From Dehalococcoidia bacterium (GTDB lineage Bacteria > Chloroflexota > Dehalococcoidia > Bin125): DNA of 64,000 nucleotides. The position numbers and the translations under genes are program-made. The notes under the pieces are model-generated. The model saw nothing but the letters and a program-made list of their open reading frames with translations, was not told where the DNA came from and did not search any database. The stretch covers positions 2,166,354-2,230,353 of the forward strand of contig OZ244908.1 of assembly GCA_965221705.1 (NCBI GenBank). Direction: 5' to 3'. The stretch's first letter is position 1. Each line of letters begins with the position of its first letter. Positions 7,238 to 41,812 of the stretch are shown here, in pieces.

Positions 7238-8482
7238 ATGCAAGAAGACTCAGTTGGAAAAGGAACGTGTGTGCGAGGAAGGCTCGTTCGCCAAAGCTGG
7301 CGGCATGATCCAACCTTCTACGCGCCACCGCGCTACCGGCGCTCGTGCAGCTACGAGTCATTCATTCCCGAACCCCTTGATCTCAGTGGTCACGAATTCG
7401 AGCTCCCGACAGACCTGGCCGCGACCCTGTCCGAAGTCGAAGCCGGCATTACAGCACTCAACAACGACGTGAGACCCGGCCTCTCATCACTGTCCAGACT
7501 GCTCTTGCGAACTGAATCGATTGCATCTTCAAAGGTCGAAGGTATGCAGGCCGACGCCAGAGCGCTGGCCATGGCCGAAGCGAGACTCCGCCTCGGACGC
7601 AGTGTTGGGGCGCAGGCGAGAGAAATCATCGCCAACATCGATGCCATGGAACAGGCCGTCCAGCGCGCCGCCGAAGCGGACATTTTCAGCCTCGACGACC
7701 TGCGCCAGATCCATGCGGCGCTCATGAACCGATTCCCTGCATCAAGACGCGCCGGTCAGCTACGCGACAGCCAGAACTGGATTGGCGGGAACGACTACAA
7801 CCCCTGCGGCGCCGACTACGTTCCGCCGCCGCCTGAGGAGGTAGTCCCGCTCTTGGAGAATCTCTGCGAGTTTGCTGAGTCGGATCTCTTTCCACCCATG
7901 ATGCAGGCCGCGATCGCCCACGCTCAGTTCGAGACCGTCCATCCATTTGATGACGGCAATGGACGCACCGGCCGGGCGTTGGTGCAAGTCGTGCTCCGAC
8001 GACGCGGCGTAGCGCCGCAGGTCGTTCCACCAATCAGCGTCGTGCTGTCGCTCCGACGAGACTCTTACATCAATGGTCTGGTCGCCTATCGCGAAGGCCG
8101 CTGGGTCGAGTGGATCACGACGTTCGCCGCCGCAACCGCGCAAGCGGCATCGTTGGCAATCCAATACGGAGACCTGGTTCAGGACCTGCTGGAGTTTTGG
8201 GCAGCGCGGCTGCGCCACACCTCGAACCCCCGCGCCGACGCTGCAGCCTGGCTCGTGCTGCAAGCGCTGCCGGCCTACCCTGCCATCACGGTCTCCGACG
8301 CGGTCCTCGCCACAGGTCGGAGCCAACCCGCGGTCAACGCAGCGTTCTCACAGCTGGAAGAGGCGGGCATCCTGACTCCGCTGGGACGATCGCGCCGCAA
8401 CCGCGCTTGGGAACCACAAGGTCTCCTGGACCTGATCATCGCCATCGAGTCAGGCGAACCACCTGCGCCTCGGCTAGACTGA
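7238..8482 (+). CDS. Fic family protein (class II, N-terminal inhibitory helix), probable AMPylase
   Basis: canonical Fic motif HPFDDGNGRTGRALV; N-terminal SSKVEG matching [ST]xxxE[GN] inhibitory motif; gene GC visibly lower than flanks; exact start uncertain (7238 or 7304). Confidence 0.85.
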   Translation: MQEDSVGKGTCVRGRLVRQSWRHDPTFYAPPRYRRSCSYESFIPEPLDLSGHEFELPTDLAATLSEVEAGITALNNDVRPGLSSLSRLLLRTESIASSKVEGMQADARALAMAEARLRLGRSVGAQAREIIANIDAMEQAVQRAAEADIFSLDDLRQIHAALMNRFPASRRAGQLRDSQNWIGGNDYNPCGADYVPPPPEEVVPLLENLCEFAESDLFPPMMQAAIAHAQFETVHPFDDGNGRTGRALVQVVLRRRGVAPQVVPPISVVLSLRRDSYINGLVAYREGRWVEWITTFAAATAQAASLAIQYGDLVQDLLEFWAARLRHTSNPRADAAAWLVLQALPAYPAITVSDAVLATGRSQPAVNAAFSQLEEAGILTPLGRSRRNRAWEPQGLLDLIIAIESGEPPAPRLD

Positions 8483-8514
8483 CCTCGCCGAACACTGGAC
8501 TTCTGGAGCGCCCC

Positions 8515-9396
8515 ATGACCGACTTTGAGAACATCATCTACCGCGTCGAAGACCGCAAGGGATACATCACGCTCAACCGCCCCGAGAAACTCAACGCGCT
8601 CTCCATCGCGCTGCAAGACGAACTCTCGCAGGCGATGTGGGAGGCCGATAACGACACTGCAGTGCACGTCGTGATCCTCAGCGGCGCCGGGCGCGCCTTC
8701 TCGGCCGGCTACGATCTGACCGGCTCCACGCGCGATTCGCAGGAGACGTACGACAAGGTCTACCGCGGCCGCGTCACCTTCGACGACGACACCTGGGGCA
8801 TGGAACGCGCCCAACGCGCGCGCATGGCGATCTTCGACATGCACAAGCCCGTGATCGGCAAGGTGCACGGCTACTGCCTCGCCGGCGGCACCGACCTCGT
8901 CCTGCTCTCCGACATCATCATCGCCGCCGACGATGCCGTGATCGGCTTCCCGCCCGTTCGCGCGATGGGTTCGCCGCCGGCTCACATGTGGCTCTATCAC
9001 GGCGGACCGCAGTTCGCCAAGCGGATGCTGCTCACCGGCGACAGCATCTCCGGCGCCGAAGCGGCCAAACGCGGCCTCGTCTACGACGCCGTGCCCGCCG
9101 ATCAACTCAACGACACAGTGGAAGAGCTCGCCGACAAAATGGCGATGATCGACCACGAGCTGCTCTCTGCCAACAAGCGCATCGTTAATCTCGGCCTCGA
9201 AATCATGGGCGCGCGAACGCTGCAGCGTCTGGCGTCCGAGAATGACGCACGAGCGCACCTCGCGCCGGCAGTCATGGAGTTCGGCAAGATGTCGCGCGAG
9301 AAGGGACTCAAGGCCGCGCTCGAGTGGCGCGACAACAAGTTCGGCGACGGCCGCGGTTCCGCCGCCGCTCAGGAACGTAAGGCCGCCACGACCTAA
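8515..9396 (+). CDS. enoyl-CoA hydratase/isomerase (crotonase) family protein
   Basis: 294 aa; YITLNRPEKLNAL ... ILSGAGRAFSAGYDL oxyanion-hole motifs. Confidence 0.85.
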   Translation: MTDFENIIYRVEDRKGYITLNRPEKLNALSIALQDELSQAMWEADNDTAVHVVILSGAGRAFSAGYDLTGSTRDSQETYDKVYRGRVTFDDDTWGMERAQRARMAIFDMHKPVIGKVHGYCLAGGTDLVLLSDIIIAADDAVIGFPPVRAMGSPPAHMWLYHGGPQFAKRMLLTGDSISGAEAAKRGLVYDAVPADQLNDTVEELADKMAMIDHELLSANKRIVNLGLEIMGARTLQRLASENDARAHLAPAVMEFGKMSREKGLKAALEWRDNKFGDGRGSAAAQERKAATT

Positions 9397-9432: not shown

Positions 9433-10239
9433 ATGGCGACTCCCGACCGCTTCCGTCTCGATGGACAGGTCGTCCTGCTCACCGGGGCGGGACGCGGTCT
9501 CGGTCGCGCCATGGCCATCTCATTCGCCGATGCCGGCGCCAAAGTCGCCGGCGCAGCGCGCACGATGTCTCAGCTCGACGAGACCACTGAACTGGTCGCC
9601 GAGCGCGGTGGTGAAGCGATCTCGATTCAGACAGACGTCAGTGACTCCAACGCGGTCGACGCCATGGTCGAGCACACGCTCGAACGGTTTGGCCGCGTCG
9701 ATGTGCTGATCAACAACGCCGGCGGCGGAGCAGAAGGCGATGGCGCCCCGCTCGACCAGCTGACCGACGACCAGTGGCGCTCTGGCATCGACCTCAATCT
9801 GACCTCGCAGATGCTCTGCGCTCGCGCAGTGCTGCCGCACATGACCGATCGCGGCTCGGGCGTGATCATCAACGTCGCGAGCGGCTTCGGATTGCGCGGC
9901 GGGCGGGAAAACTGGATGTATGTCTCAGCCAAGGCGGGCGTGGTCAACTTCACCCGCTCCCTGGCAGTCACCTACGGACCCGCCGGCGTCCGCACCAACT
10001 GCATCGCGCCAGGCATCTTTCCCCATACGCCTCAAGCGCTTGAGCGCTGGCGCGGCGGCCGATACATCCCCGTCGGACGCGCCGGCCTGGCTTGGGAGAT
10101 GGGACCGCTGGCCGTCTTCCTCGCCTCCGACGCCGCAGCCGGCATCAGCGGCGAGACGATCGCTCAGGACGGCGGCGGACTCGCCGCGATCGGTCCAACC
10201 GGTTGGGCGCCGCGCGTTCGTCTCACCGAGCCGACCTAG
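9433..10239 (+). CDS. SDR family oxidoreductase (classical), paralog of 5465-6289
   Basis: 268 aa; VLLTGAGRGLGRAMA, NNAGGG, MYVSAKAG. Confidence 0.85.
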   Translation: MATPDRFRLDGQVVLLTGAGRGLGRAMAISFADAGAKVAGAARTMSQLDETTELVAERGGEAISIQTDVSDSNAVDAMVEHTLERFGRVDVLINNAGGGAEGDGAPLDQLTDDQWRSGIDLNLTSQMLCARAVLPHMTDRGSGVIINVASGFGLRGGRENWMYVSAKAGVVNFTRSLAVTYGPAGVRTNCIAPGIFPHTPQALERWRGGRYIPVGRAGLAWEMGPLAVFLASDAAAGISGETIAQDGGGLAAIGPTGWAPRVRLTEPT

Positions 10240-10249
10240 GGAACGACCA

Positions 10250-11056
10250 GTGTCCGACTTCGTACCGTCGCCCAACCCAGAGCCGTCCGATGATCCCTTC
10301 CAGCTCAAGGGCCGCGTCGCGCTCGTCGTTGGCGCGGGCGACCCGCTGGGACGCGCCTCAGCTGTCGCGCTGGCCGAGGCCGGCGCTGATGTCGCCGTGG
10401 CTAGCCTGCGAGCCGGACCGCAAGAGGTCGTGCGCGTCAACTCAGTCGCGAACGAAATCTGGTCTCTGGGACGAGGCAACACGGCGATCACCCTTGACGC
10501 CAGCGACGAACGCAGCGTCGATGCCGCCATCGCTCGGACGACCTCGGAGCTGGAACGACTCGACATCCTCGTCAATGCCGCCGACGTGCCAGCAGCTGCG
10601 CCGCTTGATGAGTTGTCGCCCGACGATTGGCAGGCGATCCTCTCCGTCAACTTGATCGCCCCGGCGCTCACCGCCCGCGCCGCCGCCCGGGTAATGCGCA
10701 TCAACGGCTACGGACGAGTCATCAACCTCGTATCTGTGCTCGCCGCCCGTGGCGTGGCGAACACGACGGCGTACGCCGCCGCTCACGCTGGCGTCCTGGC
10801 AATGACGCGCGCGCTCTCCCAGGAATGGGCGCGCGCCGGCGTCACGGTGAACGCGCTGCAAGTGGGCTTCTATGACGGGCAACCTGGCTTCGGCGACGAC
10901 CCCGAGTCAGCCCAACAACTCGCGCGCATGCTGCCCGCCAAAGCGCTGGTCAACCCCGTTGACGTTGGCGCGGCTGTCGTCGGACTGGCGGCCGATTCCG
11001 GCTTCATCACCGGCGAGACCATCGCCGTCGACGGCGCCGCCACCGCTCGCGTCTGA
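10250..11056 (+). CDS. SDR-like protein, atypical (catalytic Lys replaced: AYAAAHAG), paralog of 6286-7080
   Basis: GTG start 10 bp after upstream SDR; 268 aa; RVALVVGAGDPLGRASA, NALQVG. Confidence 0.7.
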   Translation: MSDFVPSPNPEPSDDPFQLKGRVALVVGAGDPLGRASAVALAEAGADVAVASLRAGPQEVVRVNSVANEIWSLGRGNTAITLDASDERSVDAAIARTTSELERLDILVNAADVPAAAPLDELSPDDWQAILSVNLIAPALTARAAARVMRINGYGRVINLVSVLAARGVANTTAYAAAHAGVLAMTRALSQEWARAGVTVNALQVGFYDGQPGFGDDPESAQQLARMLPAKALVNPVDVGAAVVGLAADSGFITGETIAVDGAATARV

Positions 11057-11061
11057 AGCCG

Positions 11062-12042
11062 TCAGGCCAGGAGCGACTCCGTCACAGCCTCGATCCGCGC
11101 GCGCTGCGGAATGCGCTCAAGCCATCGCAGCGGAATCATCGACGCACCGTACCGCGCCCCCAACACGGTGCCGGCCACTGCCCCGTTCGTGTCAGTGTCG
11201 CCGCCCGCACTGACAATCCGAATCAGCGACTCTTCGAAATTGTCTGGACTGTCCAGGCACCACAGTGCCGCCTGGGCGCAGAGATACGTATGACCGCTGA
11301 CTCGTTCCTCAGCGATTCGATCCTCGATCTGTCTCGGAACTGCCAGCATCCAGGCGACCAGCTCAGCAGGGGCGCCGTCGCTGGCGGCGGCGAAGCTGAG
11401 TTCCTCGCGCTCGGGCGAGGCCCCGCGCAACAGCATGGCGAGCGCGACGTTGACCACAATGCACGACCACTGCGCGCCAGGCGCGTAATGAGTCACGGAG
11501 CAGCTCGCCGCCGACTGCGCAATCAGCGCGCCAGGGTCGTGCGCGAACCTGAGCGCCACCGCAGCGCAGCGCATCAGCGCGCCGTTTGGTTGCGTCAGCG
11601 GACAGCCATGTTCGCGCCAAAACGCGCGCGCCGCATCGGGTACCCCCAAGCCGACCTCGAGGTAATCGATTACGCGTGACGTCATCACGCCAACGCCGCG
11701 GCCATTCGAGCTGCGCCACTCGACCAACCGCCGTGCGAATCCCTCGATTGGGCCAGGATCCACGGCGTATGCCTCGGCCAGCTCGATTGCCTGAGCTAGA
11801 TCGTCATCCATCGGCCGTTCAGACTCCCGTGGATCGATCTCGCGCACGCCATTGGGATAGCGGCCTCGGATCGCGTCGCGCGTCTGACCCTCGACTGGCA
11901 GTCCGAGCAGATTGCCAACCGCCAATCCCAGCAGGACGCCTCGCGCTCGATCATGGTCGACTGGCGCGTCCGCCAGATCGCCCAGCATTCGCGCCAGCCG
12001 CGGCGCGCGCCGCACGACCCCAGGATCGTCACTGTCAGGCAT
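11062..12042 (-). CDS. ADP-ribosylglycohydrolase family protein
   Basis: 326 aa; GVLLGLAVGNLLGLPVEG N-terminal motif and GGDTDTNGAVAG metal-binding motif. Confidence 0.8.
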   Translation of the reverse strand: MPDSDDPGVVRRAPRLARMLGDLADAPVDHDRARGVLLGLAVGNLLGLPVEGQTRDAIRGRYPNGVREIDPRESERPMDDDLAQAIELAEAYAVDPGPIEGFARRLVEWRSSNGRGVGVMTSRVIDYLEVGLGVPDAARAFWREHGCPLTQPNGALMRCAAVALRFAHDPGALIAQSAASCSVTHYAPGAQWSCIVVNVALAMLLRGASPEREELSFAAASDGAPAELVAWMLAVPRQIEDRIAEERVSGHTYLCAQAALWCLDSPDNFEESLIRIVSAGGDTDTNGAVAGTVLGARYGASMIPLRWLERIPQRARIEAVTESLLA

Positions 12043-12117: not shown

Positions 12118-13548
12118 ATGAGCCTGCCCAATGACGCCTGGGGACTGCCACTGACTACCTCTGAGGAGGCCGCAGCCGCATACCGGCAAGGCGTCGACCG
12201 CATGCTGTCCTACGCCCTCGGCGTCGACGACGCGCTCCAGCGGGCCATCGACCTGGACCCAGACTTCGCCCTGGCGCACTCGCAGCTCGGACTCTTCCAC
12301 CTCTTTCGCGGCGAAGGACAGCGCGCCGCCGAACTCGCCAATCGCGCCCATGCGCTCGCCGAGCGGGCGACTCCGCGCGAGCAGCGTCACGCCGCCATCC
12401 TCGGCGCCAGCGCTCGAGGGCGCGCCGCTGACGCGCCCGCATTGATCGATGATCATCTCGCCGAAACACCGCGCGACGCTCCAATCGTGTTGCAGTGGCT
12501 GGGCGGCAACTTCTACGGCGGCGGCGTCGAAAAGCGCGAGCGCATGCTCGAGCAGTTCGACCGACTCGCCCCCGCGTTCGGCGACGACTGGTGGTTCCTC
12601 AGCTGGCACGCCTTCGCCAATCACGAGATGGATGAGCTCGATACCGCTCGACGTCTGGTCGAACGATCGCTCGAACTGCGCCGCCAGAACGGACAGGCTG
12701 CTCACGCCATGTCGCACGTTTTCTTCGAAGAGCACGACATTGGCGGCGGCGTGGAGTTCCTGGGCGAATGGCTCGCCGACTTCCCTGAACGAGCCGGTTT
12801 CTTCCGCCATCTGACCTGGCATCAAGCGCTGTTTCTGCTCGCGCAGGGACGCCGCGCCGACGCCCTCGAGCTGCACGACGATGCGATCCGACCCGGCGCC
12901 GACGTCCAGGGCGACGCGCTCGGCGCAGTCGCCGACGCGGCCTCGCTGCTCTGGCGCTGTCGGCTACACGACACCGTCGGCGGTGAGTCCGCCGCACAGG
13001 CCGACTGGCAGACGATCGCTGAACTGGCTGCCTCGGCCTTTCCGAAACCCGGCACGGTCTGGGTCGACGTGCACCGTGCCATGGCGCTCGCCGCGCTCGG
13101 AGACGAGATCGGCCTCGGCCAGCTGATCGACGGTCTCCGCGAAGCGGCTGAGCGTGGACACCCCACCGCCGGCGACGTCGTCACGCCCGTCGTCGAGGCG
13201 CTCTCAGCGTTCGGCCAGGGCGACTACGAGGCCGCCGCCGAAAGACTCAGTTCCGTCCGAGATCTACTCGTCACGCTAGGCGGTTCCAACGCCCAACGAG
13301 ACGTCTTCGAAGAGACCCTGGTCGAGGCCCGTCTGCGCGCCGGTCAGACCGAACAGGCGCTGGAACTCTTGCGCGAACGCCTTGACCGCGGCGCGACAGC
13401 GCGTGATCTCTTCCGCCTCGGACGCGCTCAGACCGCCAAAGGCGATATGCAGGAGGCGAAATCAGCGCTTCGACGCGCGGCCGAACTCTGGGCCGACGGC
13501 GACCACGAGGCTCCCGAATGGCGGGCGCTGCGCGAGGCCGCCGCATGA
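12118..13548 (+). CDS. tetratricopeptide repeat (TPR) protein
   Basis: 476 aa; repeated Ala/Leu-rich 34-residue helical repeats (AIDLDPDFALAHSQLGLFHLF...); start chosen at ATG 12118. Confidence 0.65.
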   Translation: MSLPNDAWGLPLTTSEEAAAAYRQGVDRMLSYALGVDDALQRAIDLDPDFALAHSQLGLFHLFRGEGQRAAELANRAHALAERATPREQRHAAILGASARGRAADAPALIDDHLAETPRDAPIVLQWLGGNFYGGGVEKRERMLEQFDRLAPAFGDDWWFLSWHAFANHEMDELDTARRLVERSLELRRQNGQAAHAMSHVFFEEHDIGGGVEFLGEWLADFPERAGFFRHLTWHQALFLLAQGRRADALELHDDAIRPGADVQGDALGAVADAASLLWRCRLHDTVGGESAAQADWQTIAELAASAFPKPGTVWVDVHRAMALAALGDEIGLGQLIDGLREAAERGHPTAGDVVTPVVEALSAFGQGDYEAAAERLSSVRDLLVTLGGSNAQRDVFEETLVEARLRAGQTEQALELLRERLDRGATARDLFRLGRAQTAKGDMQEAKSALRRAAELWADGDHEAPEWRALREAAA

Positions 13549-13889
13549 GTTCGCAACCCGCGCTGCCACGACCGGATGTCGTCGTCGAGGATGACGTCGA
13601 CGCCGAACGCGGCAGCGAGCTGGAGAAGCGATTCCACCTCTTCCTGCATGACTCCGATGACCACTCCTACGAGTACGTCATTGAGATGCTCGGCGCGGTC
13701 TTCGGCTACTCGAAAGAAAAGGCGTTTGCGATCGCCTCAATGATCGACGGTCACGGCCGCGGCATAGTCGAGACCGCCGACTACGAGACGGTCCGTGGTC
13801 ACCAGGATCAGATTCACGGTTGGGGCCCCGATCCACGCATCCCGCATTGCCGCGGCTCGCTGTCGGCCACGATTGAAGAAGCGCCCTAG
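13545..13889 (+). CDS. clpS: ATP-dependent Clp protease adaptor ClpS
   Basis: 114 aa; FHLFLHDSDDHSYEYVIEML...FGYSKEKAFAIASMIDGHGRGIV core; ATGA overlap with the upstream TPR gene stop. Confidence 0.8.
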   Translation: MSSQPALPRPDVVVEDDVDAERGSELEKRFHLFLHDSDDHSYEYVIEMLGAVFGYSKEKAFAIASMIDGHGRGIVETADYETVRGHQDQIHGWGPDPRIPHCRGSLSATIEEAP

Positions 13890-13952
13890 CGTCGGGCCGT
13901 CATCCTCTCGGGCCGGCGCCCAGCTGTCCGTTAGCATCGGCCCGGGAGGCAC

Positions 13953-15071
13953 GTGATGACGTTGCTAGAGCAGATCCGGCTGGCGCGCGAAGAGATTCAT
14001 GACTTCGGCTCAGGTTTGGACACCTTGAGCGAAGCCGACGCCAAACGCGAGTTCATCGACCCGATTCTGAATCAACTCGGCTGGAAGGGTCTCTCAAGAG
14101 TCCGCCAGGAGTACAAGGTCCGTTCCGGCGGACGTATGGACTACGCCCTGCTCGGCGCCAGCGGCAAGGCGATCGGTCTGATCGAAGCCAAAGCCCCGCG
14201 CGAAGATCCAACCCAACACGTCACCCAGCTGTTGGGCTACGCCTTCGAAGAAGGCGTTGACATCTGCGTTTTGACCAGCGGCATCAAGTGGCTGATGTAT
14301 CTCCCCCGCGAGAAGGGTCAGCCCGACGACCGTCTCTTCGCGCGTTTCGATCTCGCCAAGGACAACGGCGAAGCCGTCGCGTCGCTGCTCCAGCAATGTC
14401 TCGAGTATCGCAACGTGACCTCCGGCGCCGCCGAGCGCGCCGCCAAAGCCAGGCTGCAGAGCATCCGCGATGCCAGAGTGGTTCAGCAAGCGATCCCAAG
14501 AGCCGTACGGCGGCTGCTCTCAGGAACTGACGACAGCTTCAATCGACTCGTACAGCGCACCGTCCAACAGGAGGAAGGCGTCCGACCGACTCCAGATCAA
14601 GTGAGAGATTCGCTCAATCAGCTGTCGAGATTGTTGCCGTCGTCCGAGTCGGCCAATGCCGTCCAACCAGATCCTGTCCAGGCAGGCTCGCTCTCTGTTG
14701 AGAGTCCCCAAACGCCCCGCAAGGGCTTGAAGTTCGCACCGAGACCAGCGAGTTACTCATTGTGGAACCGTCGCTATGTGTTCAGAACGTGGAGCGCCAT
14801 GCTGGTCGATGTCGCCTCGGCTGTCCACTCACGGCACGAGCACGAGTTTCTGACACGTGTGTCAACTTCACCGCTCATGCAGGGACGAACGCGTGCGTAC
14901 GTCTCGACATCCGCCGAGCAGATACGCCGTGCCACGCGGATTCCAGGGACTACCTACTTCTTGGACGTCAATTGGAATGCAACCAACATGGAGCGTCGCG
15001 CTCGTGACATGCTGAGGGTCTTTGGATATGACCCCAACGAACTGACCATCGAGTACCCGACCTCTGATTGA
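13953..15071 (+). CDS. hypothetical protein with N-terminal type I restriction enzyme HsdR-N-like (PD-(D/E)xK nuclease fold) domain
   Basis: 372 aa; GRMDYALLGASGKAIGLIEAKAP resembles the HSDR_N D-x(n)-E-x-K core; C-terminal 250 aa not recognisable; lower GC than flanks. Confidence 0.5.
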   Translation: MMTLLEQIRLAREEIHDFGSGLDTLSEADAKREFIDPILNQLGWKGLSRVRQEYKVRSGGRMDYALLGASGKAIGLIEAKAPREDPTQHVTQLLGYAFEEGVDICVLTSGIKWLMYLPREKGQPDDRLFARFDLAKDNGEAVASLLQQCLEYRNVTSGAAERAAKARLQSIRDARVVQQAIPRAVRRLLSGTDDSFNRLVQRTVQQEEGVRPTPDQVRDSLNQLSRLLPSSESANAVQPDPVQAGSLSVESPQTPRKGLKFAPRPASYSLWNRRYVFRTWSAMLVDVASAVHSRHEHEFLTRVSTSPLMQGRTRAYVSTSAEQIRRATRIPGTTYFLDVNWNATNMERRARDMLRVFGYDPNELTIEYPTSD

Positions 15072-15087
15072 AGATCGGACAGCAATC

Positions 15088-16449
15088 ATGGTTCGACTCA
15101 GTGACCTCCACCACCAGGAAGCGCAGATGCTGCGCGCTATGGGTCACCAGCGCTTCGCCAGCTTCGACTCCGAGGCAACTCCTTGGCTGACGCCGCCGCC
15201 GCTCGCCGAGTCGACGGTCGCTCTCATTACCTCGGCCGGCCTGCATCGATCCGACGATCCGCCATTCCGCTTCGGCGATGGCGGCTATCGACTGATCCCC
15301 AACGACGTCGATCGCGCCGACATCACCCAATCGCACGTCAGCGTCAACTTCGACCGCACTCACTATCAGCGTGACATCAACGTCGTACTTCCATTGGATC
15401 GCCTCAGCGAGCTGGCCGAATCGGGAGTCGTCGGCGCAGTGTCGCCCTGGCACATCTCCGTGATGGGGGCCGATCCCAATCTGGCCAAACTCGAGGCGGC
15501 CGCCGCCGACATCGCCCGACAACTGCGAGCCTCCGGCGTCGACGCGGCCATGCTCGCTCCCGTTTGACCGGCCTGCACGGGCGTCGTCGGCGTCCTCTCG
15601 CACTACCTGCAACGGCACGGCATCCCCACGACAAGCATCAGCCTCGTGCGCGAACACAGCGAGCTGATCCGGCCGCCCCGCGCGCTCTGGGTACCATTCC
15701 CGCTCGGTCGACCGTTCGGCGCGGCCGAGCATCCAGACTTCCAGCGCGATGTCTTGCGCCACGCACTCGACCTGCTCGATTCGGCCCGCGAACCAACGCT
15801 CGTCGACTATCCCCGCGATGCGCCCGCCGGCGAGGGCGACGGCGTCTGGGCCTGCGCTATATCCCTGCCCGAGCCCGATGTCAGCGATCTCGAAGCGGCG
15901 CTGCGCTCCGAGGTCGATCTGCTGCGACCCTGGTACGAGGAGGCTCGACGCCGACGCGGGCGCACGACAGTCGGCATGAGCGGCGCGCGGCCCGACGATA
16001 TCGACACACTGGTCACGTTCATCGCCGCCTGCGCCGAAGGCGCAGGCCTCTCTGCCCCGCCGACCGCGGCGAGCGGACCTGCGTGGAGACATCCGATGCC
16101 AATCCTGCTCCGGTTCGTCGTCGAAGATCTGCGCGCCTTCTATCAGGAGGCGGTCACGTCGCGTCCGGGAGCATCCCCACCGACGCAGCACGAGATGCAC
16201 GGCTGGATCTTCGAAGAGACCGCGCTTGGGCGGGCGCTGCTGCAACTGGGTCAGCAGATCGCGGCAGTCAATGAGCCGGCCCTGATGCTGATCCGCGGCT
16301 TCATCATCCCCGAGGGCTTTTGGCCCGATGGTCCAACCTGGGGTACCGCCGGTCGGGCGTTATCGACGCCTGAAGCGCTGCAGCGCACGTTCCGCGTACT
16401 CTCCGGTCAGCTCGAACCAGCCAGCCCCGAGGCAAAAGCTCCTACCTGA
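15088..16449 (+). CDS. GrdB/PrdB-family (glycine/sarcosine/betaine/D-proline reductase selenoprotein B-like) protein with in-frame TGA at 15565-15567 interpreted as selenocysteine (U-P-A-C motif); about 453 aa with C-terminal extension
   Basis: ORFs 15088-15567 and 15646-16449 share one frame with a single TGA and no other stop. The N-terminal part resembles PrdB/GrdB (TVALITSAGLH ... DINVVLPLDRLSELAESGVVG ... GVDAAMLAPV-U-PACTG ... LQRHGIPTTSIS). Alternatives are a nonsense pseudogene or two separate genes. Confidence 0.6.
15579..15595 (+). other. candidate bacterial SECIS-like hairpin (cggcguc-GUC-ggcgucc, 7-bp stem incl. G-U pairs, GU in apical loop) beginning 12 nt downstream of the in-frame UGA
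   Basis: hand-folded from sequence; small and GC-rich, so weak on its own. Confidence 0.25.
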
Positions 16450-16503
16450 GCCGTTCGCGAACGAATCAACAGTCAGTCCGTGTGAAGCTGCGGAGGAACT
16501 GGC

Positions 16504-18732
16504 GTGGCGTCAGCGACCATCGATCCGACAGATCCACTGCTCGCCGCGCTCCGCCAGTACTTTGGTCACGACGCGTTCCGGCCGCAACAGCGAGAGGTGA
16601 TCGAGCACGTTCAGTCTCACGGCGACGCGCTCGTGCTGATGCCGACCGGCGGCGGTAAATCGCTCTGCTACCAGCTGCCCGCAATCCTCTCCGACGGACT
16701 CACCCTCGTTGTCTCGCCGCTGATCGCCCTGATGCACGACCAGGTGCAGGCGCTGCAACGCGCCGGCGCGAACGCCCGAAGCATCAACAGCGCCATGTCG
16801 CCCCATGAACTGTCCGATGTCGAACGTGATGTTGTGAGCGGCGCGGTGCGACTCCTTTACGTCGCGCCCGAGAGGGTCAACACCGAGCGCTTCCGTCGAC
16901 TGCTCGAGCGTCAGCCGCCCAGTCTGATCGCGATCGACGAGGCGCACTGCATCTCTGAGTGGGGACACGAGTTTCGCCCCGACTATCGCGAGCTGCGCAA
17001 GCTGACCGAGCGGTTCGTCGATGTACCCACCGTCGCCTGCACGGCGACAGCCACACCGCAGGTACAGCGCGACATTGTTCAGCAACTCGATCGTCCGCGG
17101 ATGCAGACCTTCAGCACCGGCTTCATGCGCGACAATCTCACCTTGCGCATCCTGCCCAAGCGAAAAGCCATCGATGTATTGGCTGAACGACTGCTGCGAG
17201 TGCGCAACGGCGCGGCGATCGTCTACAGCTTGTCGCGACGCAGCACTGAGAGACACGCCGAACAGCTACGTGACCGAGGCATTTCGGCCGCGCACTATCA
17301 CGCAGGGATGAACGGCGCTGAGCGTCACAGCGTGCAAGACCGTTTTCTCGCCGGCGAGACTGCGGTGGTCTGCGCCACCATCGCGTTCGGAATGGGTATC
17401 GACAAGCCTGATGTCCGACTCGTCGCGCATTTGGACATGCCATCGTCGATCGAGTCGTACTACCAAGAGATCGGCCGTGCCGGTCGAGATGGCGAGCCAT
17501 CGGAGTGTTTGCTCTTCTACACCAAAGGCGTCTGGCATCGGCAAAAGCACTTCATCGACCAACTCACCGACGAGACGGAGCGTCAGGCCCGCATACAACG
17601 CTTACGTACAATGATGAACTTCTGCGAACAGTCATCATGCCGCTGGGCGCGAATTCTGAACTACTTCGGCGACAGTCCCACGTGGGGCACTTGTAGTCAT
17701 TGCGATAACTGCAACGGTGAACAAGGCCTGATCCCGCAAGACATCGCTGCAGTTGTCGTCAATCCCGACGATCCTCCTCAACCGCCTGGACAATCAACGC
17801 CACCAGACTCAGATGGCATCGACAATGAACTGTACGAGGCGCTTCGGGATGCGCGATTCAAGCTCGCTCAGCGCGATGACGTGCCAGCGTTTGTCGTCGC
17901 GAGCAACCGCGAACTCTCCGACATCGCGACGGTGCGACCAGGCACGCCTCAAGAGTTACGCGAGATCAAAGGGTTCCGGGACCGCAAGATCGCGCGCTAC
18001 GGAGCTGAACTGTTAAGCGTCGTCGCGCAGTTCAGCGACGTCTCGCAGGATCGAGCCGCTGCGGAGGAATCGCAACCCATGCCGGTGGCATCACGGAAGG
18101 ACACTGATGAACCATCGGGCGACGCGCCGCTCAGTTGGCAGCAGCGATTCAACGCGCTCGCCGAGTGGCGAACACTGACGAGTAACCAGGAGTCGTGCGA
18201 CCCGTCCGATCTCCTGACCTTCGAAGCGATGCGCGCGCTCGCGCAATCGGTCCCGCCGACGGTCGACGCGCTGGCTCGCGTCGACGGTGTCGGCTCGCTG
18301 GCGGTCGAGCGGTACTGGCGCGAGCTGAGCGCCATCCTCGAGATCTCTGAAGCGCCTGTTGCGCAACCTGTTGAGAAACAGGCCGAACCGAGCCCCAGCA
18401 CGCCAGCGGGAGACACGCAACAGAGCTGGGAGACCACGCTGAACCTGTTTCAGTCGGGACACTCGCTGCTCGCGATCGCCGAGCGGCGGATGCTCTCGCC
18501 CGCCACCGTCGCGTCCCACTTGGTCACCGCGATGCGAAACGGAGTCAGTGTCGACCTCGAGCCGGCCTTGCCGCCCCAACCTCACATCGCGCGAGTGCGT
18601 CGTCTCCTCGACGTCGAGCCTGAGATCACCGTCGGCGACTTGCACGAGCGCATCGGTCTACGCCTGTCGCGGGCCGAACTGCGACTCGTCATCGCCTGGC
18701 TCACCGGTAGTCCCAACTCAACTCACGACTAG
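16504..18732 (+). CDS. recQ: ATP-dependent DNA helicase RecQ
   Basis: 742 aa; GTG start; FRPQQREVIEHV, LVLMPTGGGKSLCYQLPA (motif I), DEAHCISEWGHEFR (DExH), Zn-binding CxxC cluster, HRDC-like C-terminus. Confidence 0.9.
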   Translation: MASATIDPTDPLLAALRQYFGHDAFRPQQREVIEHVQSHGDALVLMPTGGGKSLCYQLPAILSDGLTLVVSPLIALMHDQVQALQRAGANARSINSAMSPHELSDVERDVVSGAVRLLYVAPERVNTERFRRLLERQPPSLIAIDEAHCISEWGHEFRPDYRELRKLTERFVDVPTVACTATATPQVQRDIVQQLDRPRMQTFSTGFMRDNLTLRILPKRKAIDVLAERLLRVRNGAAIVYSLSRRSTERHAEQLRDRGISAAHYHAGMNGAERHSVQDRFLAGETAVVCATIAFGMGIDKPDVRLVAHLDMPSSIESYYQEIGRAGRDGEPSECLLFYTKGVWHRQKHFIDQLTDETERQARIQRLRTMMNFCEQSSCRWARILNYFGDSPTWGTCSHCDNCNGEQGLIPQDIAAVVVNPDDPPQPPGQSTPPDSDGIDNELYEALRDARFKLAQRDDVPAFVVASNRELSDIATVRPGTPQELREIKGFRDRKIARYGAELLSVVAQFSDVSQDRAAAEESQPMPVASRKDTDEPSGDAPLSWQQRFNALAEWRTLTSNQESCDPSDLLTFEAMRALAQSVPPTVDALARVDGVGSLAVERYWRELSAILEISEAPVAQPVEKQAEPSPSTPAGDTQQSWETTLNLFQSGHSLLAIAERRMLSPATVASHLVTAMRNGVSVDLEPALPPQPHIARVRRLLDVEPEITVGDLHERIGLRLSRAELRLVIAWLTGSPNSTHD

Positions 18733-21700
18733 TCGCCTGCGGCCTCCGCGCCGCCGAGCTCCGCTTCAGGAACGCCATCGAGCAGCGTCAACCTCGCGCC
18801 GAGACGCGCGGGCACCTTCTGTCCCGGCAGGAGAATGCCGACCAGGTTGCACGGGTCGCTGGCGGCGATCGTGACGCGCTCGCCGTTTGACTCCGAGCGG
18901 CGCACGGCGCGCAGTTGGTCGAGCGCGGCGGGCAGCGCGAATTGCTCGCCCAACAGTCCCTGGATGAATCGACCTCCGCGAATCTCGCCGCGCGCCTCGA
19001 GGCGACGCAGCGATCGCAGGACGTCGCGCCACTGGATCGTCAGACTCTCGCGCGTCGCCAGCTCGCGCGACACGACGCCGTATCGCTGAAGCAGAATCTG
19101 AGCGATGCGCTCAGCCAGCTCGTCAGCCTCGACCGGGTCGGCGGGACCATCGACCGACGGCGGCAACGAAGCCCAGCGGCCGGCCGGACCCTCGCCGATG
19201 AACACGCCGCCACCGCCATAGCGCGGACGCCGCGACCGTCGAGACGGGCGAATCAGCTGTCGCAGACCTTGAAATCCGTCTGCGTGGGCGAGACCGCAAG
19301 CGACCAGCTCACGCAGGCCGCTCTCGACATCGGTAGCGAGACGACGCGTGCCGTCGACCAACTCGTCAAAGAACAACGCGCCGCGCTCGTCCAGCTGCCG
19401 CAGAATCTGACTCGCCGCGCCGCCCTCAGCGTGCAGCTGATCGGCGACGTCGGGCGTAGGCTCAGGCGCGGAACGTCCGCGAGCTGCCGGCGGCGGCGCC
19501 GGACGGCGCACGGCGCTGAGCAGGGCGCGAAAGTCGCGCCGCAATGCCAGCGCGATCGGCGTCGACTTGGTCGGAGCGCGCCGCGCAGAACGCGGCGTCA
19601 AGCGAGCCCAGGCGATCTCGCCCGCCAGACAGAGCTCGTCCAGCCAAGCTTCGCGATAGTCCGACACGCGCGATGCAATCAGATCCCGCTCCCACGACGC
19701 CGCCGGCGCTTCAAACCCCTGCAGCTGCTCGATCGCCGCGCGCACGCCCGCCTTGCCCGACAAACGTGTGTCAGGCGCCAGATGCTGCCAGCGCAACAGG
19801 AAGCGCAGATAGTGCTGCACGGTGACCGGCTCAATCTCGGCTCGCAGCCGAGCAATCGTGTAGCGATGGATACGCGCCAACAGTCGGCGATCGCAGTACT
19901 CCTCGGCGTCGTCGACTGAGGTCGGCGCCAGCGGCGGCGTGAAACTGCCGCGCATCACCTCGCCGTACGCCTCAAGCTGAGCCAGGCCATAGCCGCAGTC
20001 CTGCGGCGACAGGCCGCAGCGCTCGGCCAGTTGCTCGGCGGTGATCGGTCCCGCGATCTCCATGTGTCCTCGAGCCAGCTTCAGCCGCGCATCCTCGCGA
20101 TCGTCAGGCAGGATCAACGCGGACTCCGGCACTTTGAAACTCGGGTCAACGGCATGATCAGGAAACAACTGACGGATCGACTCCAGCTGCTCAGCCGCAA
20201 ACCAGACGGCGCCATCCGGCCCCTCGGCCCGCGCGGCGCGACCCTGGGACTGGAGCTCAGCGAGCATCTCGCCAATCTCGCGCTTGTCCAAGGTCGGAGC
20301 TACCGCCGCCAACCGACCCTCCGCCGACTCGCGCCACGCGACCACCGAGAGCAAGAGCTCGTGCAGCTCCTCAGCGTCGCGGATCGGCGGGAACGCTTCC
20401 TCGCGAACCCGCTCAATCGCGTCAACATCGAGCTGCCCGAGGTCGCGTTGCTCGTTCGGAAGCGTCCGTCGAGTCATCACCGCGCGCGCTCGGCGTTCCT
20501 CGAGCGGCGCATCGTCGAGAAATCCGAACGGATTGATGTTGATGATGCTCTGCGCCATCGCCGACGGCGTCACGGTGTCGCGAGCATGCAGTCGAACCTC
20601 ACCGCGCTCGATCCGCCGCAGCACGTCGATCAATGCGTCCGTGTCGACCGCTTCGTGCAGACAGTCGTCCATCGTCTGCGCGATCAGCGGATGGTCAGGC
20701 ACCTCGAGCGGTCCAGCCAGATTCTCCTGACAACCGACCTGCGCAGGAAACACGGCTGCCAACAGGTCGTCGGCGATCATCCGTTGCAGATAGGGCGGCA
20801 CTTCTTTGCCCGCTCGACGTCTGGGCACGGCCAGTGCGCGCGTCGCCGCCCAGCGCCAACGCGTGTTCCAGAATGGCGCGTACAGCACGGCTTGGCGCAA
20901 CGACTGCTCCGCATTGTCCGCCTTGAGATATTCAAACGCCTCCTCGAGCGGAAACGACTGCGTCGGCCCGAGCGAGAGCAGAATGCCCTCTTCGTTGGCC
21001 GCAGCCTGCAGCTCAAAGTCGAACCGGACGCAGAACCGCTTGCGCAACGCCAGCCCCCAGGCGCGGTTGACTCCCGATCCGAACGGAGCGTGGACGACCA
21101 GCTGCTGACCGCCCGCCTCGTCGAAAAATCGTTCGAAGACGACATCAGTATCCGACGGCATCACCTGCAGCGCCTCTTGCGTCTCCGCCAGATACTCGAC
21201 CATCTGCTCGGCGGCGATCGCCTGCATGTGGCACTCGCGTTGTAGCCGACGCGCCGCCGACTCCGCGTCGTCGCTCAGCGCCCCAATATCGCGGCGAAGT
21301 TCACCGACCGCGGCCGACAGCTCGACGCTGCGGCCCGGCGCCTCGCCCAACCAGAACGGGATCGTCGGTGGAGCGCCGTGCGCATCCTCGACCCGCACGA
21401 TGCCCTTGTTTTCGACGCGCCGTATTCGCCACGAAGTGCTGCCCAACAGAAAAATGTCGCCGGCTGCGGTCTCTATGGCAAAGTCCTCGTTGACCGTGCC
21501 GATAAACGCTCCTTCGGGCTCCTTGATCACGCGGTAGTCGCCCGTCTCGGGGATCGTCCCGCCATTGAGAATCGCCGTCATCCGCGCCGCCCGACGCGGT
21601 CGCACAACTCCATTGATGCGGTCTCGATGGATCAACGGCTGCGAACGCCCGCCGCCCTCGCCGACGCCCGTCGCAAGCATTTCAACCGTCTCGTCAAATG

Positions 21701-23078
21701 CAGTGCGCGCGAGCTCGCCATACGGCGCCGCGCGACGCATGAGTTGATAGAGCTCGTCCTCCGGCCACTCCTCGTCTGAGGCGGCCTCGGCCACGATCTG
21801 CTGAGCCAGAATCTCGATCGGCGCCGTCGGCTGGCAGATGCGGTCGAGATCGCCGCGTTCAACCGCCCTCACCATCGCCGCGCACTCGACCAGTTCGTCA
21901 AGCGACGTCGGAAACAACGCGCCGTGCGGCACCAGACCAAGCGCATGCCCCGATCGGCCAACGCGCTGTAGAAAGGTCGCAATCCGACGCGGCGAACCGA
22001 TCTGGCAAACCAAATCGACCGATCCGATGTCAATGCCAAGTTCCAGCGACGCCGTCGCCACCACCGCCTTGAGCTCGCCCGACTTGAGCCGCTGCTCCAT
22101 CACGTGCCGACGCTCCTTAGAGAGCGAGCCATGATGTCCGGAGACATGCTCTTTGCCCACGCGAATGCCGAGCTCGTGCGCGACGCGCTCGGCCAACGAT
22201 CGGCGATTGACGAAGATCAGTGTCGTCCGATGCTGAACGATCAGTTCCGCAAGGCGGTCGTAGACCGCGCCCCAGTGCTCATGCGTGGCTAGCGCCTGCA
22301 AAGGCGCATCAGTGGTCTCAATCCACAGCTTCAGCTCACGTCGATGCCCCAGATCGAGAATGCGGCAAGGCAGCGGCCGCGCCTCGTCGTCAAGCCCGGT
22401 CAGAAAGGCCGCGATCTCCGACATCGGCTTCTGCGTCGCCGAGAGCCCAATCCGCGTCGGTCGACGTTCGGCCACATGGTCGAGTCGAGCCAATGTCAGC
22501 GCCAAATGAGAGCCGCGCTTGTCTCTCACGACGGCGTGGATCTCGTCCAAAATCACAGTGCGCACGGTGCGCAATACCTCGCGCGACTGCTTCGCCGTCA
22601 GCATCAGATACAACGACTCCGGTGTCGTGATTAGGATCTGCGGCGGACGCTTGACGATCGCGCGTCGCTCTGCCTGCGTTGTATCGCCAGTCCGCAGACC
22701 CATGCGAATCCGCGGCAGCGCAACGCCACGCTCCTCAGCCAACTGACGGATGCCAGTCAAGGGCTCCTCAAGATTGCGGCGAATGTCGTTCGACAACGCC
22801 TTCAGCGGCGAGACGTACAGTATCCGCACCTCATCGGGCAATTCCTCGCGCTCGCCCTCGCGGATCAGCTCATCGATCCCGGCCAGAAAGGCGGTCAACG
22901 TCTTGCCCGAGCCGGTCGGCGCCGCGATCAGACAGTCCGCGCCCTCGCGGATCGCCGGCCAGCCATCCTGCTGGGCGAACGTCGGGTCGCCGAAGCGCTC
23001 GCGGAACCAATCCCGCACAATCGGATGAAACTGCTCCAGCGCATCCGCCGACCCAGTGGCAGCAACAGTCTGGCTCAT
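18729..23078 (-). CDS. lhr: Lhr-family ATP-dependent DNA helicase (large helicase-related protein)
   Basis: 1449 aa; N-terminal DEAD/DEAH helicase core (LIAAPTGSGKTLTAF, ILDEIH), long Lhr-type C-terminal extension; 4-bp convergent overlap with recQ. Confidence 0.9.
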   Translation of the reverse strand: MSQTVAATGSADALEQFHPIVRDWFRERFGDPTFAQQDGWPAIREGADCLIAAPTGSGKTLTAFLAGIDELIREGEREELPDEVRILYVSPLKALSNDIRRNLEEPLTGIRQLAEERGVALPRIRMGLRTGDTTQAERRAIVKRPPQILITTPESLYLMLTAKQSREVLRTVRTVILDEIHAVVRDKRGSHLALTLARLDHVAERRPTRIGLSATQKPMSEIAAFLTGLDDEARPLPCRILDLGHRRELKLWIETTDAPLQALATHEHWGAVYDRLAELIVQHRTTLIFVNRRSLAERVAHELGIRVGKEHVSGHHGSLSKERRHVMEQRLKSGELKAVVATASLELGIDIGSVDLVCQIGSPRRIATFLQRVGRSGHALGLVPHGALFPTSLDELVECAAMVRAVERGDLDRICQPTAPIEILAQQIVAEAASDEEWPEDELYQLMRRAAPYGELARTAFDETVEMLATGVGEGGGRSQPLIHRDRINGVVRPRRAARMTAILNGGTIPETGDYRVIKEPEGAFIGTVNEDFAIETAAGDIFLLGSTSWRIRRVENKGIVRVEDAHGAPPTIPFWLGEAPGRSVELSAAVGELRRDIGALSDDAESAARRLQRECHMQAIAAEQMVEYLAETQEALQVMPSDTDVVFERFFDEAGGQQLVVHAPFGSGVNRAWGLALRKRFCVRFDFELQAAANEEGILLSLGPTQSFPLEEAFEYLKADNAEQSLRQAVLYAPFWNTRWRWAATRALAVPRRRAGKEVPPYLQRMIADDLLAAVFPAQVGCQENLAGPLEVPDHPLIAQTMDDCLHEAVDTDALIDVLRRIERGEVRLHARDTVTPSAMAQSIININPFGFLDDAPLEERRARAVMTRRTLPNEQRDLGQLDVDAIERVREEAFPPIRDAEELHELLLSVVAWRESAEGRLAAVAPTLDKREIGEMLAELQSQGRAARAEGPDGAVWFAAEQLESIRQLFPDHAVDPSFKVPESALILPDDREDARLKLARGHMEIAGPITAEQLAERCGLSPQDCGYGLAQLEAYGEVMRGSFTPPLAPTSVDDAEEYCDRRLLARIHRYTIARLRAEIEPVTVQHYLRFLLRWQHLAPDTRLSGKAGVRAAIEQLQGFEAPAASWERDLIASRVSDYREAWLDELCLAGEIAWARLTPRSARRAPTKSTPIALALRRDFRALLSAVRRPAPPPAARGRSAPEPTPDVADQLHAEGGAASQILRQLDERGALFFDELVDGTRRLATDVESGLRELVACGLAHADGFQGLRQLIRPSRRSRRPRYGGGGVFIGEGPAGRWASLPPSVDGPADPVEADELAERIAQILLQRYGVVSRELATRESLTIQWRDVLRSLRRLEARGEIRGGRFIQGLLGEQFALPAALDQLRAVRRSESNGERVTIAASDPCNLVGILLPGQKVPARLGARLTLLDGVPEAELGGAEAAGD

Positions 23079-29795: not shown

Positions 29796-29897
29796 CGCGT
29801 GGCCTGCAGATTTCGGACAGGTAGACTCGCGATCAAGGTAACGCCGAGGGCCGCGCTACAGAAACACCAGCCCCTCGGCCGGCACAGGGAGACAGAC

Positions 29898-41638: not shown

Positions 41639-41812
41639 GTCAGACTCCTCGTCTCAATCCTGTGCCTCACCGACAGATCCACCCCGGATCGCCAGTGTTG
41701 ATTCGTGCGTATGCGTCGTAGCGTAGCGTCGCTCTGACCGTTGCGAGACGACCGTGAGATAGCCTGAGCCGACCGCCGATTGCGCGTGCGTTGCAGACAA
41801 TGGAGGGCGTCG

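Follow-up and report, generated by a model that had tools for sequence, protein, structure and literature searches.

Two open reading frames on the forward strand of the analysed window, i.e. the whole stretch of 64,000 nucleotides, were found by frame analysis to make up a single gene. ORFs 15088-15567 and 15646-16449 lie in one frame of 453 codons (15088..16449, +), the sole internal stop of which is the TGA at 15565-15567. The preliminary description of this DNA had already claimed that nothing but this triplet parts the two ORFs and that the joined product is 453 aa long, and the frame check agrees. The features discussed below are the following:

15088..16449, + strand: complete selenoprotein coding sequence (predicted), with ATG at 15088, selenocysteine (Sec) at codon 160 and an ordinary stop, TGA, at 16447-16449
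15199..15783, + strand: PrdB/GrdB-like catalytic domain with a Rossmann-like alpha/beta fold (aa 38-232), from TIGR04483 and PF07355 matches
15565..15567, + strand: UGA predicted to be read as selenocysteine, U160; Sec column of PrdB, TGA in all homologous copies
15574..15576, + strand: codon (TGC) of Cys163, the Sec partner in U-P-A-C; invariant in Sec forms, Cys forms and genuine PrdB
15579..15595, + strand: SECIS-like hairpin GGGCGUC-GUC-GGCGUCC, with a 7-bp stem and a 3-nt, G-first loop at 15586-15588; supported by covariation
15805..16446, + strand: family-specific, mostly helical C-terminal domain (aa ~240-453), conserved in the family and absent from PrdB
15853..15855, + strand: codon of Cys256 in a W-x-C-P motif; conserved to 98% or more among 88 Sec forms, either Cys or Ser in the Cys forms

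The N-terminus of the product, MVRLSDL, agrees with that of its homologues, which span the full length of the protein. GC content by codon position is 0.72/0.47/0.76 upstream of the internal TGA and 0.73/0.55/0.77 downstream, a coding-like pattern on both sides. All the 75 columns conserved in at least 90% of 88 family members are retained in the window protein, on either side of the TGA, which argues against decay of the gene. The opposite-strand ORF at 14968-16245, described earlier as a shadow, indeed has no support of its own, and the antisense ORFs at homologous loci only shadow the sense gene. Within the 64 kb window, neither paralogues of the gene nor other read-through TGA candidates coding-like on both sides were found, and a promoter and terminator scan of 13400-17000 gave nothing informative.

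In public annotation the window gene is reported as two genes, of 159 and 267 aa, and the identical split is found in an independent assembly. Among the best 150 cluster representatives, about 125 are fragments that begin directly behind the Sec column. In public records, hundreds of relatives appear as two entries, a stub of about 155 aa named 'GRDB' and a hypothetical protein with a length of about 250-280 aa.

Around the internal TGA the product reads MLAPV-U-PACTGVVGVLSHYLQR, with the motif V-U-P-A-C163. In a MAFFT alignment, the TGA falls in the column of the annotated Sec of the P. acidaminophilum and Terrisporobacter PrdB proteins, and Cys stands opposite to it in 19 of 22 full-length database homologues; the placement in a Sec/Cys column within a U-x-x-C motif, as first proposed, is thus borne out. 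The PrdB motif quoted on that occasion was essentially right, the actual one being GVDAAVFTAG-U-GTCHRS. TGA is kept at the Sec codon in 91 of 91 homologous gene copies (79 other genomes plus the window), which stem from Chloroflexota, Proteobacteria, Actinomycetota and other groups. The sequence on either side of the TGA is conserved in one frame throughout these copies, and a check for homologues ending here as two real genes revealed none. TGA also terminates 20 of the 48 coding-like ORFs of the window, the 15088-16449 gene included, and is therefore not reassigned genome-wide. Together, these comparisons support the assignment of 15088-16449 to the PrdB/GrdB superfamily (PF07355), as a gene encoding a selenoprotein.

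The hairpin predicted downstream of the Sec codon is 17 nt long and is separated from the UGA by an 11-nt spacer (15568-15578). Its covariation was evaluated on a gapless alignment of 86 distinct sequences, by using shuffled and slid sequences as controls. The score of 0.258 compares with 0.143 for the shuffles, none of 500 reaching the observed value, and with 0.097 or less for the slid controls. The loop is GUN in all 86 sequences. Pair 25-33, which joins the synonymous third position of a Gly codon with the first position of an Ala/Thr codon, occurs as GC in 70 sequences, AU in 12, GU in 3 and UA in 1, and is never broken. RNAalifold recovered 4 of the 7 stem pairs, because a G·G mismatch is frequent at pair 23-35. 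The hairpin of the window itself contains two G-U pairs and has a predicted energy of -8.3 kcal/mol; since the region around the TGA is no more stably folded than its shuffled versions (z +0.8 to +0.9), the SECIS call is based on comparative evidence. Rfam searches, carried out on the whole window at gathering thresholds and on 15400-15800 at E values up to 10, returned no match and no bacterial SECIS model. V167 and G168, encoded by the hairpin, are nearly invariant in Sec forms and variable in Cys forms, a difference attributable to the constraint imposed by the hairpin at the RNA level. As judged from the alignment, the geometry, with a G-first apical loop 11 nt past the UGA, is that of a bacterial SECIS element.

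The TIGR04483 (PrdB) profile matches aa 38-232 with an E value of 1.6e-30 and runs uninterrupted across the TGA. PF07355, the Pfam GRDB domain, aligns aa 39-157 with positions 223-345 of its 347 (36.8 bits, E 3.7e-9), above the gathering threshold of 22 bits; the match stops two residues before Sec, where the Pfam model itself ends (345-347 of 347). The resemblance to selenoprotein B noted at the outset is therefore real, but covers the N-terminal half (about aa 38-235) rather than the N-terminal two thirds. A search for solved structures of the PF07355 superfamily found none. An AlphaFold2 model of the Cys homologue P0056 (pLDDT 87.4), which is a model of that protein and not of the window protein, places its two Cys at the junction of a strand with the N-terminal end of a helix.

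The extra C-terminal region was also correctly noticed, its size being about 215 aa instead of the 150 aa first estimated. It is characterized by the motifs W-x-C256-P, RRGRTTVG and DLRAFYxEA, has no Pfam match, and occurs also in 'proline reductase' reads of the available part of the GOS data. Its tail, aa ~400-453, is common only to the window protein and its closest relatives. In the P0056 model, the position of Cys256 directly follows a linker predicted with low confidence. A relationship of the domain to PrdA was considered but found no support, the hhalign probability being 0.15; the PrdA processing site (ALT-C-IGP) has no motif resemblance to W-x-C-P.

Scores against curated models place the window protein outside the described subfamilies. 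It reaches 106.3 bits with TIGR04483, below the equivalog cut-off of 300 bits, and 49.2 bits with TIGR01918 (various_sel_PB), matching profile positions 222-422 only, while membership in the latter calls for 65.45 bits or more and for a match over the full length, about 430 aa. Against the GrdB, GrdF and GrdH models it scores 44-56 bits, compared with cut-offs of 602-800. The model search suggested in the preliminary description thus gave a divided answer, the PF07355 cut-off being passed and those of TIGR04483 and TIGR01918 missed.

PrdB and the window protein share a homologous alpha/beta domain (aa 38-232), with 29-39% identity (39% for P. acidaminophilum PrdB), Sec in the same column of a U-x-x-C motif, and the residues R68, D89, D96, N98, H122, U160, C163, R198 and Q219. 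PrdB, however, is a single-domain protein of about 240 aa, whereas the window protein, with its 453 aa, carries the added domain of about 215 aa; the motif is AG-U-G-T-C-H in PrdB and PV-U-P-x-C-T in the family of the window protein. PrdB is encoded beside prdA, the gene of the pyruvoyl proprotein, as in L084, the one completely annotated locus of a real prdB, which holds a prdA-CBO2463-prdB cluster; prdA is missing from 80 loci of the family. With GrdB, GrdF and GrdH (PF07355, TIGR01918) the window protein has the Pfam GRDB domain in common, but only the C-terminal half of GrdB (profile 222-422) is matched, its N-terminal 220 aa being missing, and none of grdA, grdC, grdD and grdE is found near the window gene. 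The Cys homologues (P0056, P0060, P0080 and the TauD-fused P0057) show the same two-domain architecture, 35-43% identity and the same position of C-x-x-C; they have Cys (TGC/TGT) at the Sec codon of the window and do not conserve V167-G168 at the protein level. By these comparisons, the window protein is neither PrdB nor GrdB proper.

The absence of a PrdA, GrdA or GrdE partner, first stated for the surroundings of the gene, extends to all of 80 homologous loci. By tblastn, PrdA gave no match in the window or in the 79 other loci, and Pfam scans of the genes of the window revealed no Grd or Prd partner. When all ORFs of the 80 loci were clustered, no conserved neighbour emerged; synteny was confined to particular lineages (RecQ, Lhr), and metabolic genes, such as CoA-transferase III, ECH and amidase, appeared sporadically. 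Genes for luciferase-like monooxygenases, SDR and ECH abound in the window itself, and the hosts of the stand-alone gene appear to be aerobic marine heterotrophs. None of selA, selB, selD and tRNA-Sec was found in the 64 kb window. In five other genomes (L026, L027, L032, L040 and L072) the homologue has selA/selB/selD no more than 6 kb away, joined in L027, L032 and L072 by tRNA-Sec. Of the refuting conditions listed at the outset, none refutes the assignment in these data.

The gene had been presented as an orphan, unusual for its family, and this view was not sustained. The stand-alone form is widespread, with at least 599 genomic hits in Chloroflexota, Alpha-, Gamma- and Deltaproteobacteria and Actinomycetota, and is mostly Sec-containing; it has been listed from marine samples since 2005. 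Zhang, Fomenko & Gladyshev (2005) and Zhang & Gladyshev (2008) named the family 'proline reductase PrdB' (PMC1088965, PMC2398784). Their entry (pfam07355, UxxC) comprises 42 Sargasso Sea and 235 GOS sequences, with 110 Cys homologues, and ranks with the most abundant families of marine selenoproteins (PMC1088965, PMC2398784). In the available part of GOS Dataset S1, the reads headed '#Proline reductase' contain PV-U-PxCT, PPRALWVPF, W-x-C-P, RGRTTVG and DLKAFY, and the PPRALW motif occurs at least 41 times; one of these reads, JCVI_READ_802599, shows 47% identity to the window protein over 281 aa (BLASTP, E 6e-86). The two surveys pooled the sub-families PV-U-PxCT, PN-U-PVCHQ and PS-U-GLCNQ as PrdB, and do not describe the C-terminal domain or the absence of PrdA. 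The window copy differs from the survey families by its 64% GC, Dehalococcoidia-type genome and by the longer C-terminal tail (aa ~400-453). On sequence grounds, the window gene belongs to this marine UxxC family catalogued since 2005, and does not represent a new kind of system. A literature search found no biochemical characterisation of the stand-alone PrdB-like family.

It is highly probable, in our judgement, that 15088-16449 encodes a selenoprotein of 453 aa which belongs to the marine, stand-alone 'PrdB-like' branch within the GRDB superfamily, acts by UxxC redox chemistry and has no pyruvoyl partner. Binding of SelB and Sec-tRNA(Sec) to the hairpin would lead to the insertion of selenocysteine, and U160-x-x-C163, at the N-terminus of a helix in the Rossmann-like domain, would form a selenol/thiol redox centre. 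By the mechanism suggested for PrdB, from which by homology the whole of this chemistry is derived, the selenolate may attack a bound substrate, or take up and donate two electrons. C163 would resolve the adduct to a selenenylsulfide, to be re-reduced by a dithiol reductant, e.g. thioredoxin. Unlike PrdB and GrdB, the protein would need no pyruvoyl partner, and its private, helical C-terminal domain probably serves in substrate binding or in the function of the partner. D-proline is very unlikely as a substrate.

An absence of recoding, with the TGA as a true stop (due to a pseudogene, a nonsense mutation, an assembly error or a boundary between two genes) or as a codon reassigned throughout the genome, would agree with the two-gene public annotation and with the failure to find Sec machinery in the 64 kb window. 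It is hardly compatible with a TGA found at the identical codon in every one of the 91 copies, over many phyla and with conserved flanks, nor with the recurrence of the same split in an independent assembly, a catalytic domain that runs over the TGA and a hairpin that covaries, and genome-wide reassignment clashes with the 20 window ORFs that stop at TGA. Its probability is minimal, and it can be regarded as effectively refuted. It is also very improbable that the protein is a genuine PrdB of D-proline reductase, or a GrdB-type subunit of a glycine/betaine reductase, with PrdA/GrdE and the other subunits encoded elsewhere. PrdB is indeed the best NCBIfam match, identity to the P. acidaminophilum protein reaches 39% with key residues conserved, and the literature calls the family 'proline reductase'; yet the scores fall well below the cut-offs (106 versus 300 bits for the equivalog, 49 versus 65 for various_sel_PB), PrdB is without the conserved 215-aa domain, and the window protein lacks the first 220 aa of GrdB. 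Moreover, no PrdA is detected by tblastn in the window and 79 loci, while the prdB of L084 clusters with prdA, and the seemingly aerobic marine hosts, like the monooxygenase-, SDR- and ECH-rich window, speak against this reading.

A generic selenol/thiol oxidoreductase (a disulfide, peroxide or sulfoxide reductase), in which UxxC only shuttles electrons and no C-N/C-X bond is cleaved, is an unlikely candidate, but one that several observations would suit: the gene is monocistronic, in variable, housekeeping-like contexts, the placement of UxxC at the N-terminus of a helix is classic for redox centres, and marine UxxC selenoproteins are mostly thiol oxidoreductase-like (PMC1088965). Less likely still is the further proposal that the stand-alone family is a self-sufficient reductase of undescribed chemistry, in which the C-terminal domain replaces PrdA/GrdE and a marine N/S osmolyte is cleaved. 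In such an enzyme Cys256, on the flexible linker, could be a self-processing site giving rise to an in-cis pyruvoyl group, or else a third redox residue, and in aerobic heterotrophs the reaction could be the reductive cleavage of an abundant marine osmolyte, e.g. of the betaine type. Such osmolyte catabolism would agree with the fusion to TauD and with the occasional neighbours of CoA-transferase III, ECH and amidase type.

For the stand-alone, PrdB-like selenoprotein proposed here, the value of the finding lies chiefly in annotation, the gene and hundreds of its relatives being split in public entries. Curated models offer no correct name for the family, and 'proline reductase' is very probably a misnomer. 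The family is among the most abundant selenoprotein families of the ocean, and in several genomes it adjoins the whole set of genes for Sec insertion. The window contributes a clean and intact member of it, from a SAR202-like Dehalococcoidia genome, and with it a defined, minimal hairpin of predicted SECIS function.

The two ORFs at window 15088-15567 and 15646-16449 form a single frame of 453 codons on the + strand. As the preliminary description had proposed, they are one gene split by a TGA, its only internal stop, found at codon 160 within the motif APV-U-PAC163-TG. The features of the gene are listed here.

15088 (ATG) to 16447-16449 (TGA), + strand: selenoprotein gene in one frame, sole internal stop TGA 15565-15567
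15579-15595, + strand: SECIS hairpin GGGCGUC GUC GGCGUCC, 11 nt past the UGA, 7-bp stem, loop GUN
15853-15855, + strand: codon of Cys256, W-x-C-P motif, in the flexible linker preceding the C-terminal domain

Codon-position GC is coding-like both before (0.72/0.47/0.76) and after (0.73/0.55/0.77) the TGA, a signature that none of the other TGAs of the window shows on its two sides together. TGA terminates 20 of the 48 coding-like ORFs of the window, the selenoprotein gene among them, and the codon is therefore not reassigned genome-wide. All 75 family columns conserved at 90% or more are kept by the window protein, on either side of the TGA, so the gene is not decaying. The opposite-strand ORF 14968-16245, already taken for a shadow, has no independent support, and antisense ORFs in homologous loci are likewise only shadows of the sense gene.

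Family membership was evaluated by Pfam and NCBIfam profile matching, with U written as C. Pfam GRDB (PF07355) scored 36.8 bits (cut-off 22), with aa 39-157 on profile positions 223-345 of 347; it breaks off two residues short of the TGA, where the Pfam model itself ends, and does the same in Cys homologues. NCBIfam PrdB (TIGR04483) crosses the TGA (aa 38-232, E 1.6e-30), with 106 bits against an equivalog cut-off of 300. TIGR01918 gave 49 bits for a cut-off of 65.45, and the GrdB, GrdF and GrdH models stayed far under theirs. Annotated prdB genes were retrieved from plasmid records by tblastn; those of P. acidaminophilum and Terrisporobacter each contain an in-frame TGA, and alignment places the window TGA exactly in their Sec column (GVDAAVFTAG-U-GTCHRS vs GVDAAMLAPV-U-PACTGV in the window). 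Residues R68, D89, D96, N98, H122, C163, R198 and Q219, invariant in the family, are common to the window protein and PrdB. The alignment bears out the assignment to PrdB/GrdB-type selenoproteins, with the TGA at the Sec position of U-x-x-C: 15088-16449 does encode a selenoprotein of the PrdB/GrdB superfamily, whose catalytic U-x-x-C contains the Sec.

The window protein fails the cut-off, partner and architecture tests, and for this reason is outside PrdB and GrdB proper. PrdA was not found by tblastn anywhere in 80 loci, in agreement with the description of the gene as stand-alone, without PrdA nearby. The extra C-terminal region also reported there comprises about 215 aa, conserved across the family (W-x-C256-P, RRGRTTVG, DLRAFYxEA, W373) and without a Pfam match. 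A PrdA-like C-terminal domain is not supported, as no similarity to PrdA was seen. Among Sec forms, conservation of Cys256 reaches at least 98%; Cys forms carry either Cys or Ser at that site.

A protein search gave 304 matches, mostly fragments of about 250-280 aa spanning the post-TGA part only; in the 11 full-length proteins among them the TGA column holds Cys (10) or Gly (1), and C163 is invariant. When 1.84 billion cluster representatives were searched exhaustively with a profile (E <= 1e-30), 608 proteins were recovered; about 125 of the best 150 are fragments of about 245 aa, starting at the profile position right after the Sec column. Full-length database proteins show 19 Cys and 2 Gly in this column, one more being mis-anchored by the motif search. 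Scanning one genome per species revealed at least 599 relatives; the 79 loci with the best matches belong to Dehalococcoidia and other Chloroflexota, Azotimanducaceae and other Gammaproteobacteria, Alphaproteobacteria, Acidimicrobiales, Desulfobacterales and others. In these 79 loci plus the window, TGA occupies the codon 160 position in 91 of 91 gene copies; homologues carry this TGA or, in 19 full-length database proteins, Cys at the position, which answers a check proposed beforehand. The window has a single copy. Within the 13-kb stretches fetched, several loci contain two or three paralogues of the selenoprotein gene a few kb apart, each with its own TGA and hairpin: two in L004, L006, L007 and L012, three in L008 (TGA at 4285, about 6475 and 7871), and two or three in L055, L064 and L073.

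The SECIS hairpin was analyzed in 86 distinct sequences aligned without gaps, in all of which its position is fixed. Covariation was 0.258, compared with 0.143 ± 0.009 for shuffles, none of 500 reaching the observed score; sliding the partners by 1-3 columns gave at most 0.097. Over the alignment, 82% of cells are paired. Pair 22-36 occurs as CG49/GC24/UA3/AU2, and pair 25-33 as GC70/AU12/GU3/UA1, with zero broken; the latter links position 1 of an Ala/Thr codon with the synonymous position 3 of a Gly codon, a coupling that protein selection cannot explain. G is the first loop base in every one of the 86 sequences. As independent evidence, V167 and G168, encoded by loop and 3' arm, are near-invariant in Sec forms, whereas Cys forms vary freely (RGAAAL, RATCAI, RTVCVL and others). 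The geometry is that of the minimal SECIS of E. coli fdhF, a 17-nt upper stem-loop at a distance of 11 nt from the UGA. At -8.3 kcal/mol and with two G-U pairs, the hairpin of the window itself ranks 70th of 86 from the most stable, in the weaker quarter; the local region folds no better than shuffled sequence, and no Rfam family was matched.

The 64-kb window contains no tRNA genes, no homologue of SelA, SelB or SelD (tblastn with E. coli proteins) and, by Pfam scans of about 50 ORFs, no Sec-machinery domains. In five of 79 loci, from unrelated genomes, selD, selA and selB lie within 6 kb of the homologue, far above chance expectation. This suggests that, in these five organisms, the PrdB-like protein is a main client of the Sec machinery.

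Sel genes near the homologue, by fetched locus
L026:7363-10299, Chloroflexota: selA/selB/selD
L027:1300-5860, Chloroflexota: selA/selB/selD and tRNA-Sec 2654-2750
L032:14-3800, Alphaproteobacteria: selA/selB/selD and tRNA-Sec 3704-3797
L040:716-4355, Gammaproteobacteria: selA/selB/selD
L072:205-4035, Alphaproteobacteria: selA/selB/selD and tRNA-Sec

The window gene has an HSDR_N-like gene on one side (17-nt gap) and recQ on the other (54-nt gap), all on the same strand, with no promoter or terminator signal found around it. Clustering all ORFs of the 80 loci revealed no conserved partner beyond close Dehalococcoidia synteny (RecQ, Lhr); ABC ATPase, CoA-transferase III, 2-hydroxyacid dehydrogenase and amidase are no more than sporadic neighbours. 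Another public assembly of the region (L080, ENA ERZ26695499 contig_57) breaks recQ into two gene calls (L080:10859-12980 vs intact window 16504-18732) and lhr into three (L080:13123-17439 vs intact window 18729-23078), likely through frameshift errors of that assembly. Four luciferase-like flavin monooxygenases (26028-26942 (-), 29775-31085 (+), 32562-33605 (+), 40631-41638 (-)) are found in the window, also rich in short-chain dehydrogenases, enoyl-CoA hydratases, CoA-transferases and glyoxalase-fold proteins (5465-7080, 9433-11056, 8110-9396, 41780-42586), a gene content characteristic of SAR202-type marine Chloroflexota. A few kb upstream of the selenoprotein gene are a Fic/DOC-domain protein (7238-8482 (+)) and an ADP-ribosylglycohydrolase (11062-12042 (-)), with metabolic genes between. 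ORFs 36561-37913 (+), 450 aa, and 53219-54082 (+), 287 aa, are coding-like, with no Pfam match at E <= 1e-5.

'Proline reductase PrdB' (pfam07355, UxxC) was among the most abundant marine selenoprotein families in the 2005 Sargasso Sea survey (42 sequences; PMC1088965), and again in the 2008 GOS survey, with 235 sequences plus 110 Cys homologues (PMC2398784). The portion of GOS Dataset S1 compared includes reads with every hallmark of the window protein's family, C-terminal domain included, one being 47% identical over 281 aa (E 6e-86); the family is therefore an already catalogued predicted selenoprotein. In that portion the '#Proline reductase' bin is mixed, holding PV-U-PxCT (the window protein's family), PN-U-PVCHQ and PS-U-GLCNQ. 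A Cys version of the PN-C-PVCHQ type adjoins selO on a Roseomonas plasmid (L085:4929-5837). The surveys lumped the stand-alone family with PrdA-dependent PrdB and at least two other motif sub-families, and later reviews carried on the PrdB label; in public gene calls the gene appears as two, a GRDB stub and a hypothetical protein. The literature yielded no biochemical work on the stand-alone form. With at least 599 relatives and the 2005 and 2008 listings, the gene is neither an orphan nor unusual within its sub-family, contrary to the preliminary description; of the stand-alone reductase proposed there, the stand-alone state with an extra domain holds.

One Cys-form homologue (P0057, L088:5107-7233) carries a C-terminally fused dioxygenase domain of the TauD/TfdA type, Fe(II)/2-oxoglutarate-dependent, and its flanking genes encode FMN_dh and two enoyl-CoA hydratases; fusion and neighbours may be a hint about function. 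A self-sufficient reductase, in which the C-terminal domain or Cys256 would replace the pyruvoyl partner on a marine osmolyte substrate, has circumstantial support and appears improbable. By analogy with PrdB and GrdB, the protein probably shares their selenol/thiol chemistry.
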